In this document: piece after piece, positions 2,175 to 55,350 of the stretch
Layout: every line of letters begins with the position of its first letter
Numbering within the stretch: the stretch's first letter is position 1
Source of the DNA: a virus
Virus record (IMG/VR): IMGVR_UViG_3300033049_000020
Span: 88,465-152,464 of that record
Length of the DNA stretch: 64,000 nt
Strand: one strand, 5' to 3'
Made by a program: the position numbers and the translations under genes
The notes under the pieces: model-generated
The model's input: only the letters and a program-made list of their open reading frames with translations
Databases searched by the model: none
Told to the model about the DNA's origin: nothing

Positions 2175-2380
2175 ACGAAGAAGTTACCCACTTCAATTAT
2201 TGTATAGCTAGACCATGGAAAAATAATCCAAATAGTCTATCCGCATACGCTTTAGGTACTCAATTATTTTATGGTACTATGGAGGAGGCTGAAGACACAA
2301 GAGCGAATATAAGTAAACGAGCTGGAAAAGAATATGAAATCTATAAGCTTGATAATCAACCACTTATGAGAAAACCTTAA
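2171..2380 (+). CDS. Hypothetical protein
   Basis: Packed ORF with ATGA coupling. Confidence 0.55.
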   Translation: MNEEVTHFNYCIARPWKNNPNSLSAYALGTQLFYGTMEEAEDTRANISKRAGKEYEIYKLDNQPLMRKP

Positions 2381-2397
2381 AATATTTTACAAAAGAC

Positions 2398-2428
2398 TTG
2401 TATTATCCAAATACTTTTCGTATCTTTG
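2398..2428 (+). promoter_or_regulatory. Bacteroidetes-type sigma-A promoter of tRNA operon 1
   Basis: TTG (2398) ... TATCTTTG (2421-2428) matches the -33/-7 TTTG/TAnnTTTG consensus. Confidence 0.8.
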
Positions 2429-2459
2429 TACTATATTTAATAGAAAGACATAAACAGTT

Positions 2460-2528
2460 ATGAGAAACTTTAACGACATATTCGAATTCAACTTTGCCGC
2501 ATTTGCGGAGGAGGATGATTGCATCTAG
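2460..2528 (+). CDS. Attenuator leader peptide MRNFNDIFEFNFAAFAEEDDCI
   Basis: 22-codon ORF (ATG 2460, TAG 2526-2528) between promoter and terminator; 5 Phe, 3 Glu, 3 Ala, 3 Asp codons. Confidence 0.8.
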   Translation: MRNFNDIFEFNFAAFAEEDDCI

Positions 2529-2530
2529 AT

Positions 2531-2604
2531 GCCAAAGGATATGTTGTAAACGAAACTCAATACGATATACAAAACCTTTGGCTAACCAGTCAAAGGTTTT
2601 TTTT
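2531..2604 (+). terminator. Attenuator: antiterminator overlapping an intrinsic terminator
   Basis: Terminator AAAACCTTTGGCT-AACC-AGTCAAAGGTTTTTTTT (2571-2604); competing helix GCCAAAGG (2531-38)/CCTTTGGC (2575-82) extended by TATGTTGTA/TACGATATA. Confidence 0.8.
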
Positions 2605-2698
2605 ATGCCTTAAAATTAAAATATGCGACCTAAGCTAACTTGGTAGAAGCACTGGCTTGAAACCCTTCTTTCTAATAGAAGTAAAACAATTAGAGTGA

Positions 2699-2710
2699 GT
2701 TCTTTGACAT
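2699..2710 (+). promoter_or_regulatory. boxA-like antitermination site (also 3447-3458, 15846-15856, 21373-21384)
   Basis: GTTCTTTGACAT / GTTCTTTGAAA resembles rRNA-operon boxA; always upstream of RNA genes. Confidence 0.6.
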
Positions 2711-2721
2711 CTTGGTTAAAT

Positions 2722-2795
2722 GGGGTAGTGGTAGAGTTGGTCAATTGCGTTCGGTTGAAGCCCGAAAGATGTAGGTTCGATTCCTACCTGCCTCA
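2722..2795 (+). tRNA. tRNA-Phe(GAA)
   Basis: Acceptor GGGGTAG/CTGCCTC; TTCGG-TTGAAGC-CCGAA; GTAGG-TTCGATT-CCTAC. Confidence 0.85.
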
Positions 2796-2859
2796 CAAAA
2801 GTTTGAACTATTTTTACACTTTTCAGTCTTTGTTGATATTTATATTAAACGATGATATT

Positions 2860-3276
2860 ATGGAAAAGAAAATTTGTACACGATGTGAAGATAGTAAAGA
2901 GTTAGACGACTTCAGTTGGAAGAGTAAAGTAAAAGGGACTAAACAGTCTAAGTGTAAAGTATGTATGCGTGAGTTGGATAAGATAAAATACGCTAATGAT
3001 ACTGAAAGGAGAAGAAGAATAAGGGAAACCGCAAAACTGGCTTATATTAGGAATCGTGATTTTGTGCGGAGAGTAAAAAGGTTGGGTAGCTGCTCTGAAT
3101 GTGTAGAAGATAGGTGGTATTGTTTAGACTTCCATCATTGTGGAGATAAAGAGTTTGAACTTAGTGATATGGTACATTCTGGGTATTCCATTATTAAGAT
3201 TAAAAAGGAAATTAGAAAATGTAAGCTTCTATGTGCTAATTGTCATAGAGAAGAACATTACCAGAATGGTTATTGA
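2860..3276 (+). CDS. HNH homing endonuclease with N-terminal Cys/Zn domain
   Basis: CxxC ... LDFHH ... C.LLCANCHREEH; likely start ATG 2860, since the track start at 2695 overlaps a tRNA. Confidence 0.8.
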   Translation: MEKKICTRCEDSKELDDFSWKSKVKGTKQSKCKVCMRELDKIKYANDTERRRRIRETAKLAYIRNRDFVRRVKRLGSCSECVEDRWYCLDFHHCGDKEFELSDMVHSGYSIIKIKKEIRKCKLLCANCHREEHYQNGY

Positions 3277-3312
3277 CGCGGTTCGAAACTGGTAGGTCGC
3301 ACCAAAACATAC

Positions 3313-3385
3313 GTGACAGTAGCTCAGTTGGTAGAGCATCGCCCTGAAGAGGCGAGTGTCGGGGGTTCGAGACCCTCTTGTCACA
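3313..3385 (+). tRNA. tRNA-Phe(GAA)
   Basis: GTGACAG/TTGTCAC; canonical D arm; TCGCC-CTGAAGA-GGCGA. Confidence 0.9.
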
Positions 3386-3549
3386 CAGCTAATATTTTAG
3401 CCAGAAATAGCTAAAATAGAGGTAAATAGTTAATATATTAGCTATTGTTCTTTGACATCTTGGTTAAATGGTGCTGTATGCAAGCGGTTCAACGCAGCAA
3501 TTTGACATTTTCTAAATGTTTAGTATATTTATATTAAAATAGATATATT

Positions 3550-4176
3550 ATGGTAAGAAAATGGAGAGAAAAGGAAATTGAGTTTTTAAAGCTTAATTAT
3601 GGTGCTAATGGTTGTAAATACGTTTGTGAAAAATTAAATAGAGGTAGAGGTAGTGTACAGAAAAAGGCTAAAGTCTTCAACCTGAAAGTAGATAGGAAAA
3701 AAATTTATTATTCAGTGGAAGTTGTTAGTAGAATAGTCAGTGAAAGTATGTCGATGAAGGATGTGGTGTTGGCATTAGGTAAAAGTGTTAGTGGTAAACA
3801 ATATAAGGTAATAAAAAAGTTTATAGATGATAATAGTATTGACGATACACATTTTAATCCTTACCACTTAAATAAAACTAATTTAAAAATTGGTAGAGTC
3901 ACATATCCAATTGACCATTGGCTTAAGAACGGTTCTAATATTAGTAGTTCTAACTTAAAGGTTAAACTATATAAAGAAGGTCTGAAGAAGAGGGATTGCG
4001 AAATGTGTGGGCAAGGTGAAGAATGGTTAGGTAAAAAAATGAGTTTAATACTTGACCATATTAATGGGGTGAATGATGATAATAGGTTGGATAACTTAAG
4101 GATTGTTTGCCCTAATTGTAACGCTACCTTGGAAACCCATTGTAGAGGTAGTAAGGGATTAAAACAACGTGCGTAA
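3550..4176 (+). CDS. HNH homing endonuclease
   Basis: CEMCG ... LDHINGVNDDNRLDNLRIVCPNCNA. Confidence 0.9.
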   Translation: MVRKWREKEIEFLKLNYGANGCKYVCEKLNRGRGSVQKKAKVFNLKVDRKKIYYSVEVVSRIVSESMSMKDVVLALGKSVSGKQYKVIKKFIDDNSIDDTHFNPYHLNKTNLKIGRVTYPIDHWLKNGSNISSSNLKVKLYKEGLKKRDCEMCGQGEEWLGKKMSLILDHINGVNDDNRLDNLRIVCPNCNATLETHCRGSKGLKQRA

Positions 4177-4250
4177 TGCAATTGGGTGCGCAACTGGGCT
4201 TTCACCCCAGCTACATTGTTAGAGAGTGGGTTCGATTCCCACACGCATGA
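4168..4250 (+). tRNA. tRNA-Glu(TTC), long variable region
   Basis: CGTGCGT/ACGCATG; CTGGG-CTTTCAC-CCCAG; overlaps the HNH stop codon. Confidence 0.75.
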
Positions 4251-4444
4251 CTATACAACCTTGTGTCTATATGACTTCGAGGGTTCGAATCCCTTCGGCA
4301 CTACATTATTGGTGTTCCAAATTGACCTAAAATTGAGTGTTTTGGAACACCAATAACCAGCCAAAACTACCTGTTTTAGGGTACATTTGGCTGGTTATAG
4401 AACGCGGAATGTACTTAAATGTGGTAGATTCCGAGAAATATCAC

Positions 4445-4517
4445 CGCCCGTTGGTCTATCGGTTAGGACGTCTGGTTTTCAACCAGAAGGTGATGGGTTC
4501 AATTCCCATACGGGTGA
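4445..4517 (+). tRNA. tRNA-Glu(TTC)
   Basis: CGCCCGT/ACGGGTG; TCTGG-TTTTCAA-CCAGA. Confidence 0.85.
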
Positions 4518-4519
4518 CC

Positions 4520-4543
4520 TTGACAATCTGGAAAGACAGATAA
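4520..4543 (+). repeat. 24-nt inter-tRNA repeat TTGACAATCTGGAAAGACAGATAA (second copy 5909-5932)
   Basis: Exact repeat; boxA-like TTGACA followed by the hairpin ATCTG-GAAAGA-CAGAT. Confidence 0.7.
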
Positions 4544-4547
4544 TTAT

Positions 4548-4624
4548 GGGGGATGGGACTGCTTTGGAGTGGTCACCTCACTTGCAATGAGGAAATCAGA
4601 TGGGTTCGAATCCCATATCCTCCA
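4548..4624 (+). tRNA. tRNA-Ala(TGC)
   Basis: G3:U70 pair; CCTCA-CTTGCAA-TGAGG. Confidence 0.85.
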
Positions 4625-4689
4625 CTCAATGTGGGACTTTGATTTACTTTTTCTCCACTTTGCGTATATTTATAATAAAGACTAAATAA

Positions 4690-5469
4690 ATGGCTAAGTG
4701 TAAGAATATTGAGTGTAAAAATAATACAGAAGGTAAACGAGTTTATTGTTCGTTACAGTGTAGGAACTATTATGTTAACAAATATATTAGGGACTACAAT
4801 AAAAATAGCAAGGGGCTTGCCAAAGACGCTAAGAAAGTTTATGAGGACAACCCTAAATATTGCTTAAACCCTAATTGCGGAGAGAAGATAACATATAAGA
4901 AAAGAAGGAACCAATATTGTAATAGCTCATGTCAGGCGTCTGTTACGGGTGTAGGTAGAATTGTTAGCGAAAGTACTAGGGAAAAGCATAGATTAAGTAG
5001 GTTAAAACAAATTGGTGATTACAAAAAGGTTGATTGTAAATGGTGTGGTTCAGAACTATTAGTTATGAATAGAAGACTATATTGTGATTCAGAATGTAGA
5101 AGAAAATATAATCGTAAGAATATGGATGAGTTCTTAATCTACAAAGCTGACACAAAATTCGGTTTTAATTTGGGTGATTATCCTAAAGAATTTAATTTTG
5201 GGCTGATAGAGGAACACGGTTGGTACTCACCAACCAATTCAAGAAAGCCTAATATTGGTGGTATAAGTAGAGACCACATGTTATCAGTTAGAGAAGGGTT
5301 TAATAGTGGGATAGACCCAAAATTATTGAGTCATCCAGCCAATTGTAAATTGATGATTCATGGTGATAATATTAGTAAGAATAAGAAATCTAGTATAACA
5401 GAAGAAGAATTAAAGGAAAGGATTAAAGAATGGAATAAGAAATATGGGGCTATGGTGACAACTGGCTAA
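4690..5469 (+). CDS. HNH-like homing endonuclease with Cys-rich repeats
   Basis: Repeated C..C...YC...C motifs; C-terminal SRDH...HPANCKLM...NISK. Confidence 0.7.
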   Translation: MAKCKNIECKNNTEGKRVYCSLQCRNYYVNKYIRDYNKNSKGLAKDAKKVYEDNPKYCLNPNCGEKITYKKRRNQYCNSSCQASVTGVGRIVSESTREKHRLSRLKQIGDYKKVDCKWCGSELLVMNRRLYCDSECRRKYNRKNMDEFLIYKADTKFGFNLGDYPKEFNFGLIEEHGWYSPTNSRKPNIGGISRDHMLSVREGFNSGIDPKLLSHPANCKLMIHGDNISKNKKSSITEEELKERIKEWNKKYGAMVTTG

Positions 5470-5519
5470 CACGTTGCTTTTGCAAGGCAGAGATGGGGTA
5501 TCGTACACCCCTAGCTCCA
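5446..5519 (+). tRNA. tRNA-Ala(TGC), atypical T loop
   Basis: GGGGCTA/TAGCTCC with G3:U70; loop TTTGCAA; T loop ATCGTAC. Confidence 0.75.
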
Positions 5520-5544
5520 CTTATTAACTTAAAAATGAAGTAAA

Positions 5545-5814
5545 ATGAGACTTACAGAGAAAAGAGAAATGCTTATGAAATTGGGTGAGAACCTAATGAG
5601 TAAAGGTGGTAAGCTAACACTTAACTTCACCAACGGTAGTATGAGGTATACGGAGCTTATAGCTTCTGAACAGTATCACTATCAAAGTGACAAACGATAT
5701 GTCGAAATATCGGCTATGGTTCATTTCAGTGAACCAAACGTCTACAGGGTAATACCTATAGGCACTAATACAATTAGTTTTGTACTGGAAACACTTCTGA
5801 GTAACTCCAAGTAA
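5545..5814 (+). CDS. Hypothetical protein
   Basis: ORF between tRNAs. Confidence 0.55.
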   Translation: MRLTEKREMLMKLGENLMSKGGKLTLNFTNGSMRYTELIASEQYHYQSDKRYVEISAMVHFSEPNVYRVIPIGTNTISFVLETLLSNSK

Positions 5815-5833
5815 CCGCTTGGCATCAGTAATT

Positions 5834-5905
5834 GGTCTTGAAGCACAATGGCTGTGCAACTCGTTGTCTGCGAGAAAGTTGCGAGTTCGAATCTCGTCAG
5901 GACCG
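5834..5905 (+). tRNA. tRNA-Asp(GTC)
   Basis: GGTCTTG/CAGGACC, G73; loop TTGTCTG. Confidence 0.8.
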
Positions 5906-5934
5906 CCTTTGACAATCTGGAAAGACAGATAAAT

Positions 5935-6017
5935 GGATATGGCGCATAACGGCTGGTGTACCTGACTGTCACTCAGGTGTGTGTAACACGTAGTGGGTTC
6001 GACTCCCATCATATCTG
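5935..6017 (+). tRNA. tRNA-Asp(GTC), long variable arm
   Basis: GGATATG/CATATCT; CCTGA-CTGTCAC-TCAGG. Confidence 0.8.
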
Positions 6018-6053
6018 CCCTTGACTTTTTGGTACTTAGCCATATTTATATGT

Positions 6054-6695
6054 ATGAGGAAACCAAAAACGATACATTACCTTTACAAGACTACTTGTAA
6101 AGTAACAAATAGGTACTATGTAGGGATGCATAGTACCAACGACTTAGAAGACGGTTATATGGGTTCTGGAAGAAGGTTACGAGCCTCAATCAGGAAACAT
6201 GGTGAAGATAACCATACCAAAGAGATATTGGAGTTCTTTGATGATAGAGGACGACTGATAGAAGCAGAGAAGGAATCTATTACCTTAGACATGATTGATG
6301 ATAAGGATTGTATGAATCTGATGGGAGGTGGAACAGGTGGTTTCATCAGCGAAGACCAACAGAGGCATCGTTCAACGATTGCAGTGGAGAAGAGAGAAAA
6401 GAAGAGAGAGGACGACCCAGAGTGGGATAAAGAGTATAGACAAGCTCAATCCCTATCATTGATGAAGCAATATGAGAGTGGTAAGCGAGTATCCAAGCTC
6501 CCAAACTGGGAAGGTAGGAAACATTCAGAAATTACTAAAGAGAAGATGAGGGAGACTAAGAAGGGACAAGGCTCTGGCGAAACTAACTCTCAATACGGTA
6601 CTTGTTGGATAACCAAAGATGGTTCCAACAAGAAGATTAAGAAACAACTTCTTGATTCATTCCTTACTGAAGGATGGGTTAAAGGTAGAAAATAA
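6054..6695 (+). CDS. GIY-YIG (Seg-like) homing endonuclease with NUMOD3-like motif
   Basis: YLYKTT...YYVGMH...YMGSG; GRKHSEITKEKM. Confidence 0.85.
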   Translation: MRKPKTIHYLYKTTCKVTNRYYVGMHSTNDLEDGYMGSGRRLRASIRKHGEDNHTKEILEFFDDRGRLIEAEKESITLDMIDDKDCMNLMGGGTGGFISEDQQRHRSTIAVEKREKKREDDPEWDKEYRQAQSLSLMKQYESGKRVSKLPNWEGRKHSEITKEKMRETKKGQGSGETNSQYGTCWITKDGSNKKIKKQLLDSFLTEGWVKGRK

Positions 6696-6742
6696 TTTGG
6701 ATAGGTCGAATATTTTACGTATCTTTTACGTATCTTTGTAGG

Positions 6743-7009
6743 ATGAAAAGATTTAAGATAGGCGATACGTTCGTCAATAATGTAGACCATAGTAAGGTTA
6801 GTTCTAAAGGATATGACCATGCAGTTAACTACCTGCCATACACTTCAGAACCAGATGAAAGTTTGGAAACTATTGGTAAAACACAAACGGTTATAGATAT
6901 TGAAGATGGTGATACTATAATCACTGATTTTGTTTTATCATCTGGAGAAACGTACTGGTTTGAAAAGGATTCCTCATACGCAGAAAGTTGTAAAAAAATA
7001 CGAATGTAA
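6743..7009 (+). CDS. Hypothetical protein
   Basis: ORF directly after a TATCTTTG promoter. Confidence 0.6.
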   Translation: MKRFKIGDTFVNNVDHSKVSSKGYDHAVNYLPYTSEPDESLETIGKTQTVIDIEDGDTIITDFVLSSGETYWFEKDSSYAESCKKIRM

Positions 7010-7112
7010 GAGCAAGCTGTCGTGAGACGCTGTATTGGGTTCATTACCCGATAAGTCTACGGTTAAAGGTGGTACCATTGTTAACTTATAGGTGCAATTC
7101 CTATTACATTCG
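7002..7112 (+). ncRNA. Expanded tRNA-like RNA, CAT anticodon
   Basis: GAATGTA/TACATTC acceptor; ATTGGG-TTCATTA-CCCGAT; ATAGG-TGCAATT-CCTAT; oversized D and variable regions. Confidence 0.5.
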
Positions 7113-7203
7113 CTAAGGTTGAATACAGCAAACAAAAATTCCGAGAGATGTGCCCACGGGCACCCTTCCCGACCAAATTCCCGAAAGGGGTCAACCTACA
7201 TTC

Positions 7204-7275
7204 CGTCCTATGGTGTAACGGCTAACATGCTACCCTGTCACGGTGGCGCTAGGGGTTCGATTCCCCTTGGGACGG
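7204..7275 (+). tRNA. tRNA-Asp(GTC)
   Basis: CGTCCTA/TGGGACG, G73; CTACC-CTGTCAC-GGTGG. Confidence 0.85.
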
Positions 7276-7739
7276 CTCTGGAACTTTTGTACCTTAGCTA
7301 TATGAGGAAACAAAATGATGGTGTTTCAAGTAGAAAATAATTTGTAAATGTCAAATAAATTTTGTATCTTTGTATTATGAGTAGATATGAAGTAAGGGTA
7401 ATATGGTACGAGGGTGCCACTCAAACTGAAATAATCACAGGTAACCTAACCATGGGTAATAATTATTATCAGATAGTTGACGAAGATTTTAAGGACTGGT
7501 TCTTCCCAATGGGAAGAACCGTAATTCAAGAACTATGAAAGGATTTATATTTTGTATATGGATGTTTATGGATGTTTATAACACTTGTACTTGTACTTAG
7601 TCTTATAGGTTTGTGGGTGGTATTACCTACCACAACACATTACGTTGAAGGTCCGCCAAACATCATTAGAAGTGACTGGATGATATTAGGTGACAAATTA
7701 CTGGAAGCGGTATTAACGGATAAGAAATAAAACTGACAG

Positions 7740-8844: not shown

Positions 8845-8960
8845 TGGCGTATGGTGTAGTGGTAGCACACTTATAACGGAACCTGACCAAGGTTCTATTC
8901 AGCAACAAAAATTTCCATTTCGAGGAAGTAGCGGAGGTTCGATTCCTTCTACGTCAACCA
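8845..8960 (+). ncRNA. tRNA-like RNA whose anticodon arm is replaced by an insert of about 55 nt
   Basis: TGGCGTA/TACGTCA-ACCA; intact D arm and GGAGG-TTCGATT-CCTTC T arm. Confidence 0.6.
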
Positions 8961-17212: not shown

Positions 17213-17297
17213 GGCGCAATAGCTCAGTTGGTAGAGCGAGGTTTAAAAATGCTACTTGTAGCGGCCTTGGTCGGTGGTTCGAATCCATCTTGCGCCA
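17213..17297 (+). ncRNA. tRNA-like RNA with aberrant anticodon arm
   Basis: GGCGCAA/TTGCGCC; canonical D and T arms; anticodon region holds an extra GCTAC-TT-GTAGC hairpin. Confidence 0.65.
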
Positions 17298-17302
17298 CAT
17301 AT

Positions 17303-21178: not shown

Positions 21179-21268
21179 ATGAGAAACTTTACTACGACTT
21201 ATAAAGGGAAACAGTATCCGCAAGGCACAAAGCCAAGCGCACTGAGATTGTCGTATCTTGTTTTCTAA
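21179..21268 (+). CDS. Attenuator leader peptide MRNFTTTYKGKQYPQGTKPSALRLSYLVF
   Basis: 29-codon ORF; same MRNF start as leader 1; residues 5-19 are only T/Y/K/G/Q/P. Confidence 0.8.
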   Translation: MRNFTTTYKGKQYPQGTKPSALRLSYLVF

Positions 21269-21334: not shown

Positions 21335-21400
21335 GTTGTTTCATATTTTGACAACGTTAAAAATAAAATATGGTTCTTTGACATCGTGGTAATAAATAAA

Positions 21401-38741: not shown

Positions 38742-39863
38742 GTGGAAACATATAAAGATTTAAAAGGGAAAAGGGTCTTGTGTGCGATGTCGGGAGGATT
38801 AGATTCCACCATGACAGCGTTACTATTGCACGAGGCTGGATGTGACTGTATAGGTATCACGATGAAAACTTGGGACTATGCATCTTCTGGAGTTGCTGAC
38901 AGTAACTCCAAGACCACAGGTTGTTGCTCGTTGGATGACATCAACGATGCTAGACAACTATGTGTCGATTACGATATCCCTCATAACATCATTGATATAC
39001 GTGAAACTTTCACCGACTCAGTGGTTGATAACTTCATTGATGAATATATGGCTGGTAGGACACCCAATCCTTGTATAGTATGTAATACTCACATTAAGTG
39101 GGGTGCGCTATTAAATTATGCCGACCAATTAGGGTGCGACTATATTGCGACTGGCCATTATGCTCGTATCCGTTACGAAAATGACAGATACGTTATCTCA
39201 AGTGGTATTGATGTAACTAAAGACCAAAGCTATGTGCTATATGGGTTGAGCCAAGAGGTGTTAGCCCGTACTCTAGTTCCTATGGGTGAATACCTTAAAA
39301 GTGATATCAGGAACATGGCTAAAGAGCGTGGCTATGACGCAATTGCTACTAAATCGGAGAGTTACGAGATTTGTTTTGTACCTATTGGACACTTTAGTGA
39401 TTTCTTAAAATTTAAGAGACCAGAGTTATTGCACTTAGATGGTGGGGAAATCAGACTTAAAGATGAGACCGTAATAGGTACGCATCATGGGTATCCTTTC
39501 TACACCGTAGGACAAAGAAGAGGACTTGGGTTATCGACTGGCAATGCGGTATACGTTAATGACATAGACCCTAAGAATAATATTGTCTACGTTGGTGGTG
39601 AAGATGAGTTGAATAAGACTGTGGTATATGTCAAAGATTTTAACTACGTCAAATACCCGTCTATTGAGGATGGATTCGAATGTGTTGTTAAAATACGTTA
39701 TAAGGATAGAGGTTCCCATGCTAGGTTATACAATGCTGAAGATGGGTTAATTAGGGTAGAGTTCCTAAAAGAGGTGAAAGCCCCTACGTTAGGTCAGAGT
39801 GCAGTAGCCGTTGATTATGATGGTGACCTGATTGGTGGTGGTATAATGATTAAGCGTATGTAA
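38742..39863 (+). CDS. mnmA: tRNA-specific 2-thiouridylase MnmA
   Basis: AMSGGLDS, GRTPNPC..CN..IK, ATGHYA, KDQSY, GQRRGLG. Confidence 0.95.
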   Translation: METYKDLKGKRVLCAMSGGLDSTMTALLLHEAGCDCIGITMKTWDYASSGVADSNSKTTGCCSLDDINDARQLCVDYDIPHNIIDIRETFTDSVVDNFIDEYMAGRTPNPCIVCNTHIKWGALLNYADQLGCDYIATGHYARIRYENDRYVISSGIDVTKDQSYVLYGLSQEVLARTLVPMGEYLKSDIRNMAKERGYDAIATKSESYEICFVPIGHFSDFLKFKRPELLHLDGGEIRLKDETVIGTHHGYPFYTVGQRRGLGLSTGNAVYVNDIDPKNNIVYVGGEDELNKTVVYVKDFNYVKYPSIEDGFECVVKIRYKDRGSHARLYNAEDGLIRVEFLKEVKAPTLGQSAVAVDYDGDLIGGGIMIKRM

Positions 39864-53766: not shown

Positions 53767-55350
53767 ATGAGTTTACAAAGACAACTTAGACGAAACCTCA
53801 AGACAGCCTTAGAGAATAGGGATTGGGAGACCATGAACATATTAGCTCCATCATTAGACAAACTATTGGAGAAGCCTGATAATTTAGTACTTCTTGGAGA
53901 TGCTTACAAGTATTCTCATCATAAGTTTTATCTTGACAATACAAGTGTAATTGGTTCGTATATGGAATCAAGAGGGGGTCGATACTCCTCAACAGTATTC
54001 TACGGACTACAATACTTCCTTAAACGATATTTGAGTGGAGTTGCTATCCTTGCAGAAGAGGTAGACGAGGCTTATGAGTACCTAGGAACTAAATTGGGTA
54101 CATTCGGTAGAGACGATGTGTTTGACCGAAGTAAGTTTGACTACATTGTTGAGAAGCATGGTGGTAGACTACCAATCAGAATTAAGGCAGTTCCAGAGGG
54201 AACGTCAGTTAACGTTAGTAACGTTATGTTGTACATCGAGAACACTGACCCTAATTGTGCATGGTTAACCAACTTCTTAGAAACATTGATTCTACAGATT
54301 TGGTATCCAATTACAGTAGCTACTCTTTCAAGAGAGGTGAAGAAAGTAGCTAATCAAGCGTTCCTTGATACTACTGACCATGATAAAGACACTATTGATT
54401 TCTTATTGGACTTCGTATTGAATGACTTTGGTTTCCGTGGAGTGTCCAGTGTTCAATCAGCCGCAATCGGTGGCTCTGCACACTTGGTGAACTTTAGAGG
54501 TTCAGACACTACAGTAGCGTCTCAACTTATTAGAGAGAATTATAATACCGATGTTGTTTACAACCTATCAGTTCCAGCAACTGAGCACTCCATCATGTGT
54601 ATGGAAGGTAAGGAGGGTGAAGCTAAGATGATGAGACGAGTTCTTGAGCAATATCCAACAGGTATTGTAGCTTGTGTGTCAGATACTTATGGTATTATGA
54701 ATGCAATCAGAAACATCTGGGGCGATGAGTTGAAGGATTTGATTTTGTCAAGACCTGCGGAACCAGGAAATCAGTTGGTTATCCGACCTGATTCTGGCCA
54801 CGTAATCAACACATTGATTATGATTTTCGATGAGTTATTTGACATTTTCGGATACACAACCAACAGCAAAGGTTATAAGGTACTTCCATCACAGATTAGA
54901 GTAATCCAAGGTGATGGTGTCAACCCAGACGCAATTGCTGAGATTTATGACATGCTACGAGAGAGAAAAATCTCTGCCGAGAACATTGTATTCGGTATGG
55001 GTGGAAAGCTTCTTCAAGCTAATATTGATAGAGATACGCAGAATTTCGCAACCAAAGCATGCTATGCTGTGATTAATGGTAAAGAACGTAACATCGTTAA
55101 GGAGCCGATTGAAATTAATGAGAACTTCGAGGAAGTTCCATCATTCAAGAAGTCTAAGCAAGGAATGCCTAAATTGGTTAAGAATGATGATGGAACGTTC
55201 CGAACAGTTACTAGCCATATGGTCGAGTTTGACTCAGTTAAAGATGAGTTAGTGACTGTGTTTGAAAATGGTAACATTTTGGTTGATTACACTTTCGAAG
55301 AAATTAGAGAACGAGCAAGTATTCATGAAGAAACTCTGGAGCTAGTTTAA
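53767..55350 (+). CDS. nadV: Nicotinamide phosphoribosyltransferase
   Basis: DAYKYSH, DFGFRG, PATEHS, VSDTY, IRPDSG, QGDG, FGMGG. Confidence 0.95.
   Translation: MSLQRQLRRNLKTALENRDWETMNILAPSLDKLLEKPDNLVLLGDAYKYSHHKFYLDNTSVIGSYMESRGGRYSSTVFYGLQYFLKRYLSGVAILAEEVDEAYEYLGTKLGTFGRDDVFDRSKFDYIVEKHGGRLPIRIKAVPEGTSVNVSNVMLYIENTDPNCAWLTNFLETLILQIWYPITVATLSREVKKVANQAFLDTTDHDKDTIDFLLDFVLNDFGFRGVSSVQSAAIGGSAHLVNFRGSDTTVASQLIRENYNTDVVYNLSVPATEHSIMCMEGKEGEAKMMRRVLEQYPTGIVACVSDTYGIMNAIRNIWGDELKDLILSRPAEPGNQLVIRPDSGHVINTLIMIFDELFDIFGYTTNSKGYKVLPSQIRVIQGDGVNPDAIAEIYDMLRERKISAENIVFGMGGKLLQANIDRDTQNFATKACYAVINGKERNIVKEPIEINENFEEVPSFKKSKQGMPKLVKNDDGTFRTVTSHMVEFDSVKDELVTVFENGNILVDYTFEEIRERASIHEETLELV

Follow-up and report, generated by a model that had tools for sequence, protein, structure and literature searches.

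A candidate leader-peptide attenuator ahead of a Phe/Glu/Ala/Asp tRNA operon in a jumbo phage

Leader-peptide attenuation and phage tRNA genes

To our knowledge, leader-peptide attenuation is known as a control of enzymes that make or charge amino acids. The enterobacterial attenuators of ilvGMEDA (Ile/Val/Leu), thrL (Thr/Ile) and ilvBN (Val/Leu) are multivalent, and pheM is the leader of the Escherichia coli pheST operon, which encodes phenylalanyl-tRNA synthetase. Here we describe a comparable element in a virus record of IMG/VR (IMGVR_UViG_3300033049_000020), in which a short leader open reading frame (ORF) and a terminator precede an operon of tRNA genes for Phe, Glu, Ala and Asp. The DNA analyzed, hereafter the window, is the terminal 64 kb (record positions 88,465 to 152,464) of a single 152,464-bp contig and has a G+C content of 36.5%; positions below are those of the window unless labeled otherwise. 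On the evidence of the sequence, we consider it likely that the element gates transcription of the phage tRNA operon by ribosome-mediated (leader-peptide) attenuation, under negative feedback from the operon's own products.

The resemblance to the ilv and thr leaders is close, as these also combine a short translated ORF, codons for several amino acids, and protector, antiterminator and terminator helices, with a stall at any sensor codon leading to read-through. They control bacterial enzymes of amino-acid biosynthesis, however, whereas the phage leader precedes tRNA genes. In addition, the phage leader addresses four isotypes, and that of a sister operon as many as seven; with four such channels in the genome, all 20 amino acids are covered. 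Like the phage element, pheM is a Phe-codon leader whose attenuator precedes a translation-related gene, and it responds to charged tRNA-Phe; unlike the phage leader, which would regulate tRNAs, it regulates a synthetase, for a single isotype, and is chromosomal. T-boxes likewise sense the state of one particular tRNA by transcription attenuation and control translation-related genes, but they bind uncharged tRNA directly, with one specifier codon and no ribosome, and there is no T-box match at the phage leader.

Large phages such as T4 and T5 carry tRNA clusters, and for some of these a role has been proposed in making good the loss of host tRNAs to anticodon nucleases. As in the operon described here, these tRNA arrays are interspersed with homing-endonuclease genes. 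In the literature we searched, we found no description of a codon-matched leader or attenuator for any of these clusters, and a full-text search found no description of leader-peptide (trp-operon-style) control of tRNA genes. At the sequence level, the phage element has an ORF, codon enrichment, a terminator, an antiterminator and a protector helix, as expected of a leader-peptide attenuator, and modeling predicts an appropriate placement of the sensor codons. The genes downstream are tRNA genes and homing-endonuclease ORFs rather than genes for amino-acid biosynthesis, amino-acid transport or aminoacyl-tRNA synthetases, which are the targets of every described attenuator of this type that we found. 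The novelty therefore lies in the regulated genes, the tRNAs, and not in the mechanism.

The leader and its alternative RNA structures

The elements of the putative attenuator are as follows.

2398-2430, + strand: host-type (Bacteroidota-like) promoter, with TTG at 2398-2400 and a TAnnTTTG box at 2421-2428
2460-2528, + strand: leader ORF of 22 codons with a TAG stop; homologous ORFs are present in 9 further genomes
2473-2483, + strand: region 1 (protector strand), containing the family-wide ACATA; pairs with 2537-2547 in the minimum free energy (MFE) fold (shuffle p = 0.02)
2529-2549, + strand: in-frame ATG directly after the TAG, 6 codons, then TAA; equals the tail and stop of homologous leaders when aligned with the closest relative
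2531-2548, + strand: region 2; 2531-2538 (GCCAAAGG) is the antiterminator strand and 2537-2548 pairs with region 1 or with 2561-2569
2561-2582, + strand: region 3; 2561-2569 plus the core of the terminator 5' arm at 2575-2582 (CCTTTGGC)
2571-2608, + strand: intrinsic terminator; a 13-pair hairpin (2571-2600) and a T8 tract (2601-2608)

An initial annotation of this DNA had read the leader ORF at 2460-2528 and had counted Phe, Glu, Ala or Asp at 14 of residues 4-20; both statements are exact. The sensor comprises codons 4-20 (2469-2519) and has five Phe, three Ala, three Glu and three Asp codons. Overall, 14 of 21 residues fall in the Phe/Glu/Asp/Ala set (binomial 3.6e-5). The sequence ATGAGAAACTTT, described as the common start of two leaders, does occur at two sites in the window, 2460 and 21179.

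The promoter core is at 2420-2430 and the transcript probably starts near 2436, which would place the ATG at 2460, between promoter and terminator, about 24 nucleotides (nt) past the start. The core motif, GTATCTTTGTA, is present 27 times in the window (26 times on the + strand), compared to 2.4 expected, and it is found upstream of many window genes, nearly all of which are on the + strand. The motif fits the Bacteroidota -7 box, and the promoter type is assigned by its likeness to the Bacteroides consensus. A near-identical promoter precedes the Cys/Val/Leu leader described below.

The three-way architecture that had been proposed for the locus was confirmed by both pairing and folding. Helix 1:2 is formed by ACGACATATTC (2473-2483) and GGATATGTTGT (2537-2547), with 11 pairs including 2 G-U. 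Together with the terminator, it is part of the MFE structure of the transcript 2436-2612 (-45.1 kcal/mol, z -4.8), and none of 200 shuffled sequences folded as well. Helix 2:3 is formed by GCCAAAGG (2531-2538) and CCTTTGGC (2575-2582), a pairing with a dG of -14.2 (p = 0.007), and is extended by an inner helix, 2540-2548 with 2561-2569. The stretch 2521-2588, which is the RNA exposed 3' of a stalled ribosome before the 3' arm of the terminator is synthesized, folds as this two-helix antiterminator (-16.7 kcal/mol, z -4.7). As the 3' half of region 2 is needed by both helix 1:2 and helix 2:3, the three structures are mutually exclusive. The terminator at 2571-2608 is the sole terminator-like site on the + strand in 2300-7500.

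As claimed in the initial annotation, the antiterminator strand begins 2 nt past the TAG stop. This TAG (2526) is 21 nt upstream of the position at which homologous leaders stop, which corresponds here to the TAA at 2547-2549. The terminator begins 46 nt past the TAG but 25 nt past the TAA, the latter being within the family range of 22-36 nt. It is possible that reinitiation at the adjoining ATG, or read-through of the TAG by the two CTA suppressor tRNAs of the phage, allows a ribosome to travel across the antiterminator strand, as it would in the related leaders. Reassignment of TAG was considered and rejected: 17 of 152 long + strand ORFs end in TAG, in-frame extensions beyond it are short with one exception, and stop use in the fragment is ordinary, with no sign of recoding.

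An RNA this structured (z -4.8), with codons complementary to the anticodons of the operon's own tRNAs, might instead act as a switch that dispenses with the ribosome, for example by binding tRNA directly as a T-box does. We consider this extremely improbable, since no T-box or other Rfam match was found in 2380-2720 at E <= 1 (nor any T-box match in 2380-7420 at that threshold), relatives retain both the start codon and the frame, with third-position changes in excess, and a run of 14-17 different codons is without a known ribosome-independent reader.

Leaders matched to tRNA arrays in one genome and its relatives

Nine tRNA genes, with no other match of note, were detected by Rfam in 2380-7420, and the only isotypes assigned to them by ARAGORN are Phe, Glu, Ala and Asp. 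The two Phe, two Glu, two Ala and three Asp genes that had been read downstream of the leader are thus all present according to both programs. These and other elements of the operon are as follows.

2703-2713, + strand: boxA-like element GTTCTTTGACA, also found 3' of attenuators in relatives
2722-2796, + strand: tRNA-Phe (GAA), 57.8 bits
3313-3386, + strand: tRNA-Phe (GAA), 64.4 bits
4168-4251, + strand: tRNA-Glu (TTC), 39.5 bits
4445-4519, + strand: tRNA-Glu (TTC), 62.1 bits
4548-4624, + strand: tRNA-Ala (TGC), 38.2 bits
5446-5519, + strand: tRNA-Ala (TGC), 40.9 bits; overlaps the 3' end of ORF 4690-5469
5834-5907, + strand: tRNA-Asp (GTC), found by Rfam and ARAGORN
5934-6020, + strand: tRNA-Asp (GTC), long form, 41.5 bits
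6720-6740, + strand: internal host-type promoter without a leader, with an exact GTATCTTTGTA at 6730; upstream of ORF 6743-7009 and the last Asp gene
7204-7276, + strand: tRNA-Asp (GTC), 53.3 bits

The contig as a whole has 44 tRNA genes by ARAGORN and one tmRNA, and its tRNAs are organized in four attenuator-headed operons that are sorted by isotype and jointly cover all 20 amino acids. Outside the window, a leader rich in Leu, Val and Cys codons, followed by a terminator, heads the Cys/Val/Leu array, and a second leader and terminator, rich in Ser, His, Ile, Asn, Trp, Arg and Met, heads an array with those isotypes. With the leader at 21179 included, the four leader sets are non-overlapping and total 20 amino acids. 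The initial annotation had predicted that tRNA clusters outside the window would have isotype-enriched leaders of their own, which is the case; it had proposed looking for leaders that begin with ATGAGAAAC, a start that these do not share. It had also argued that coincidence between leaders and tRNAs was unlikely. When 565 ORFs of 20-35 codons from the whole contig were scored for in-set runs, the four leaders ranked 1, 2, 3 and 6; these ranks and the binomial value above bear that argument out, and a chance match of leader to array is excluded.

Relatives were retrieved from IMG/VR using a 710-aa marker protein as the query. They include contigs of up to 380 kb, several of which carry direct terminal repeats and are estimated to be 100% complete, and therefore we consider the 152-kb contig to be a fragment of a jumbo phage. 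Among deposited phage genomes, no relative was found by megablast, by tblastn with the 710-aa marker or by blastn with the leader, and no cultured representative was found. A search for relatives through the ORF immediately 5' of the leader also found none. An exact search of IMG/VR with the promoter core was discarded, having returned only generic Bacteroidota-type promoters without tRNAs downstream.

The leader family comprises 27 leaders from nine related genomes with marker-protein identities of 46-68%. A later pattern search yielded seven matches, of which three were unrelated sequence and four were extra Phe/Glu/Asp/Ala-type leaders, including one duplicate. The layout is kept in all 27 leaders, and these and the four extra leaders all sit upstream of arrays of matching isotype. 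Even a distant relative (46% marker identity; L114:539-690), in which a single leader with a different make-up precedes one mixed cluster of 11 isotypes, has 23 of 31 leader residues in the cluster's set. What the sequences show directly is the elements and the statistics attached to them, and that these elements are conserved and co-vary.

Across the four leader types, the share of residues 2-20 that is in-set is 0.86, 0.56, 0.63 and 0.86, compared to backgrounds of 0.29, 0.15, 0.24 and 0.31, and when leaders were compared with the sets of other operons the values were mostly depleted. Exchanges at core columns stay in-set in 46-64% of cases, against 15-31% by chance. These in-set exchanges have a negative mean BLOSUM62 score in three of the four leader types (-0.76 in the Phe/Glu/Ala/Asp type); examples are A/E, A/D and E/F in the present type, and Q/Y and G/T in the Pro/Gln/Tyr/Thr/Gly/Lys type. 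That exchanges are in-set and yet chemically non-conservative argues that what is selected is a list of codons for given tRNAs, and not a function of the peptide. Codon position 3 accounts for 42% of nucleotide differences overall and 50% in the Phe/Glu/Ala/Asp type, and different synonymous codons are used at 217 of 772 identical aligned residues; as the sequence pairs are not independent, these codon-position values represent a trend and carry no formal probability.

The RNA structures are conserved alongside the codons. A U-tailed hairpin lies 22-36 nt past the stop in 27 of 27 leaders. Within the tail of the ORF, at 8-40 nt from the stop, there is a complement to the terminator 5' arm; judged against dinucleotide shuffles, it reaches p < 0.05 in 19 of the 27 leaders (1.35 expected). 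When each terminator arm was matched against all leaders, it ranked its own leader first in 11 of 27 cases and third or better in 17; the mean rank of 4.3 (14 under the null) was reached by 0 of 100,000 null draws, and the present leader is rank 1 of 27. Compensatory changes are seen relative to the closest homologue, in which TCCGAAGG/CCTTCGGA replaces the GCCAAAGG/CCTTTGGC of this leader. Both the conserved layout in related jumbo phages and the co-variation of antiterminator and terminator support the leader-attenuator interpretation that the initial annotation had offered.

Supporting the protector helix is the fact that ACATA occurs at codons 5-7 in 22 of the 27 leaders, in all four types (background 6.6%), and that 17 of 27 have a complementary T[AG]TG[TC] adjoining the antiterminator strand (background 4.8%); this motif pair is the protector helix. 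It accounts for the Asn and Ile codons that have no partner tRNA in this operon. The initial annotation had tentatively tied the single ATA codon to a CAT tRNA at 7002; no such tRNA was detected there at Rfam E <= 1, and the codons belong instead to the family-wide ACATA RNA motif, codons 5-7 forming region 1.

The same data bear on whether the promoter, small ORF and terminator could be a self-contained gene for a peptide or small RNA, with the tRNAs transcribed from phage-specific promoters further downstream. The TTGACA-type motifs and the GTTCTTTGACA element between terminator and tRNAs would fit such an arrangement, as would the leaderless promoter at 6730. It is nevertheless very unlikely, given that the composition of the peptide is conserved through chemically non-conservative exchanges, that the co-variation of ORF tail and terminator arm makes sense only for a switch, and that in nine genomes the unit is always directly upstream of the matching array.

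Several further features of the operon were observed. The initial annotation's report of a split tRNA-Phe is borne out by a 5' half (2626-2666) and a 3' half (3277-3304) whose acceptor arms are complementary. The split falls after the anticodon, and the insert of about 610 nt holds the complete tRNA-Phe at 2722-2796 and a Cys-rich ORF (2860-3276); no Rfam group I intron match was found for the insert, which has the look of a mobile cassette supplying a tRNA in place of the one it interrupts. ORFs of the homing-endonuclease type are located among the tRNA genes, namely an HNH ORF (3550-4176) and a GIY-YIG/NUMOD3 ORF (6054-6695; weak match), while ORF 4690-5469 has no family match. Each of these three ORFs has a TATATTTATA-like motif upstream. 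The motif GTTCTTTGA[AC]A has seven + strand copies in the contig, six of them at or near the starts of tRNA operons and often just past an attenuator (window 2703-2713, 3447-3457 and 21373-21383; genome 48140, 56997 and 80737), and it also occurs in relatives. It resembles the boxA of rRNA operons, a site bound by NusB/NusE, and may be an antitermination or processing signal; a literature search on the boxA-like motif returned only unrelated matches.

Two stretches of tRNA genes follow leaderless promoters, one with Cys and two CTA suppressors and the other with Met/Asn/Arg behind a promoter internal to the His/Trp/Ser/Asn/Arg/Ile/Met array. Outside the window, the tmRNA and the two CTA (amber-suppressor) tRNAs lie behind a plain leaderless promoter (genome 44751-45125 and 47335-47483), and weak Rfam tRNA matches of 28-38 bits that ARAGORN cannot fold normally are located at genome 59554-59942 and 64674-64863. 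Two tRNA-like genes in the window are outside the operons (17213-17298 and 8845-8957): one scores 53 bits in Rfam and is given a four-base anticodon, AAAA, by ARAGORN, and the other is a 113-nt match of 43.6 bits that may carry an insertion. In addition, window 38742-39863 and 53767-55350 encode an MnmA-like tRNA 2-thiouridine synthase (Pfam E 7e-68) and a nicotinamide phosphoribosyltransferase. The substrates of MnmA-type enzymes are Glu, Gln and Lys tRNAs.

Some relatives differ in organization. In a complete 353-kb relative (L110:480-640, L112:690-870), one and the same 48-nt promoter cassette truncates the leaders of the His/Trp/Ser and Pro/Gln/Tyr types at the 5' end, such that the start codon and region 1 are gone while the tail and terminator are retained; these may represent a natural constitutive variant. 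In a complete 369-kb relative (L130:650-1075), the Phe/Glu/Asp/Ala array has no leader and is preceded instead by a promoter and an ORF of about 60 aa. In the His/Trp/Ser-type operon of several relatives, the attenuator is separated from the first tRNA by a gene for a conserved protein of 56-62 aa (L107:1759-1929, L110:667-840, L114:692-880 and, on the - strand, L122 678-840). The mixed cluster of the distant relative (L114) contains Trp, Arg, Ala, Val, Gly, Thr, Glu, Asp, possibly Tyr, Gln and Cys tRNAs, two of the cluster's tRNAs having odd anticodon loops that ARAGORN cannot assign.

Operation of the putative switch and its implications

We infer that the leader is translated and that ribosomes stall on it, and likewise the direction and size of the response. 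Host RNA polymerase would initiate at the promoter near 2430 and a ribosome would translate the 22-codon leader. With Phe-, Glu-, Ala- and Asp-tRNAs ample, the ribosome would reach the end of the ORF, on or past GCCAAAGG (2531-2538), the terminator (2571-2600) would form and transcription would stop at the T tract. If any of the four tRNAs were scarce, the ribosome would stall within codons 4-20 and cover region 1, region 2 would pair with region 3 (2531-2538 with 2575-2582 and 2540-2548 with 2561-2569), no terminator would form, and polymerase would read through into eight or nine tRNA genes. The new tRNAs would then lift the stall, so that each operon would be negatively fed back by its own products. 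In the absence of a ribosome, helix 1:2 would capture region 2 and the terminator would form.

We modeled this sequence of events in several ways. A footprint model, in which the ribosome reaches 12 nt 3' of the A-site codon and no pairing is allowed across it, predicts that the terminator arm goes from sequestered to free (the antiterminator from free to blocked) at codon 17-21 in 27 of 27 leaders. This switch point, whose position varies with the footprint that is assumed, coincides with the last of the run of in-set codons. In an equilibrium model of the present leader with the whole terminator present, the terminator is predicted to form with a probability of 0.98 in the absence of a ribosome, no higher than 0.3 with a ribosome on most of codons 3-14, and approximately 0.4-0.6 at codons 10-11. 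This is the profile expected of an attenuator, and about half of the other leaders also give it.

A number of observations weigh against the proposed attenuator. In the equilibrium model, about half of the 27 leaders terminate at any ribosome position, and thus the decision between on and off would have to be kinetic. In the same model, stalls from codon 15 onward in this leader fail to prevent the terminator, its Glu and Asp codons at 16-20 being near the switch point. The TAG stop is 21 nt ahead of the usual family stop, and a ribosome terminating there would only marginally cover the antiterminator strand. The antiterminator is not significant in 8 of the 27 leaders, no more than 7 of the 27 have a significant helix 1:2, and the diversity of synonymous codons in the sensor is not above expectation (227 compared to 220 +/- 5.8). 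Some relatives have no leader or have one cut at its 5' end. Lastly, the second promoter core at 6730 implies that the last Asp gene, which has this leaderless promoter as well, is not solely under the control of the attenuator.

Two points of this kind concern the signal itself. Stalling reports charged tRNA and alone cannot separate a shortage of tRNA from amino-acid starvation, and in a model of truncated transcripts the antiterminator arises in most leaders with no ribosome present (mean 0.69). The same attenuator might therefore answer to amino-acid starvation or to the general translational state of the host (uncharged tRNA, translation shut-off), so that slowing translation would switch all the tRNA operons together: what a stalled ribosome senses is aminoacyl-tRNA, irrespective of the cause of the shortage, and the truncated-transcript result would mean that loss of translation also opens the operons. 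Four non-overlapping codon sets matched to their arrays, and substitutions confined to those sets, are not needed for such general sensing, however, and extra tRNA is no cure for amino-acid starvation; we therefore consider a general signal unlikely, and continue to favor an attenuator that responds to the operon's own tRNAs.

A more far-reaching proposal, which we put forward tentatively and regard as rather doubtful at present, is that the four attenuators form a complete four-channel sensor of decoding capacity for all 20 amino acids, by which the phage detects depleted host tRNAs and replaces only those. Depletion of this kind could arise from an anticodon-nuclease defence, host shut-off or a mismatch in codon usage in a new host. 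If true, the four-channel sensor would be both an inducible counter-defence and a host-range device.

The regulated product of the putative attenuator is tRNA itself, and the loop would therefore close directly, a tRNA controlling its own synthesis via the speed at which its codons are read. We consider this to be a rare instance in which function can be read this clearly from sequence, and the leaders, if they operate as proposed, would provide natural, compact and modular sensors of the availability of single tRNAs for synthetic biology. For the phages themselves, such control would explain why tRNA genes are sorted by isotype into separate operons, would mean that phage tRNA arrays are expressed conditionally rather than constitutively, and would provide a testable link between these arrays, the tRNA-cleaving defences of their hosts and host range.

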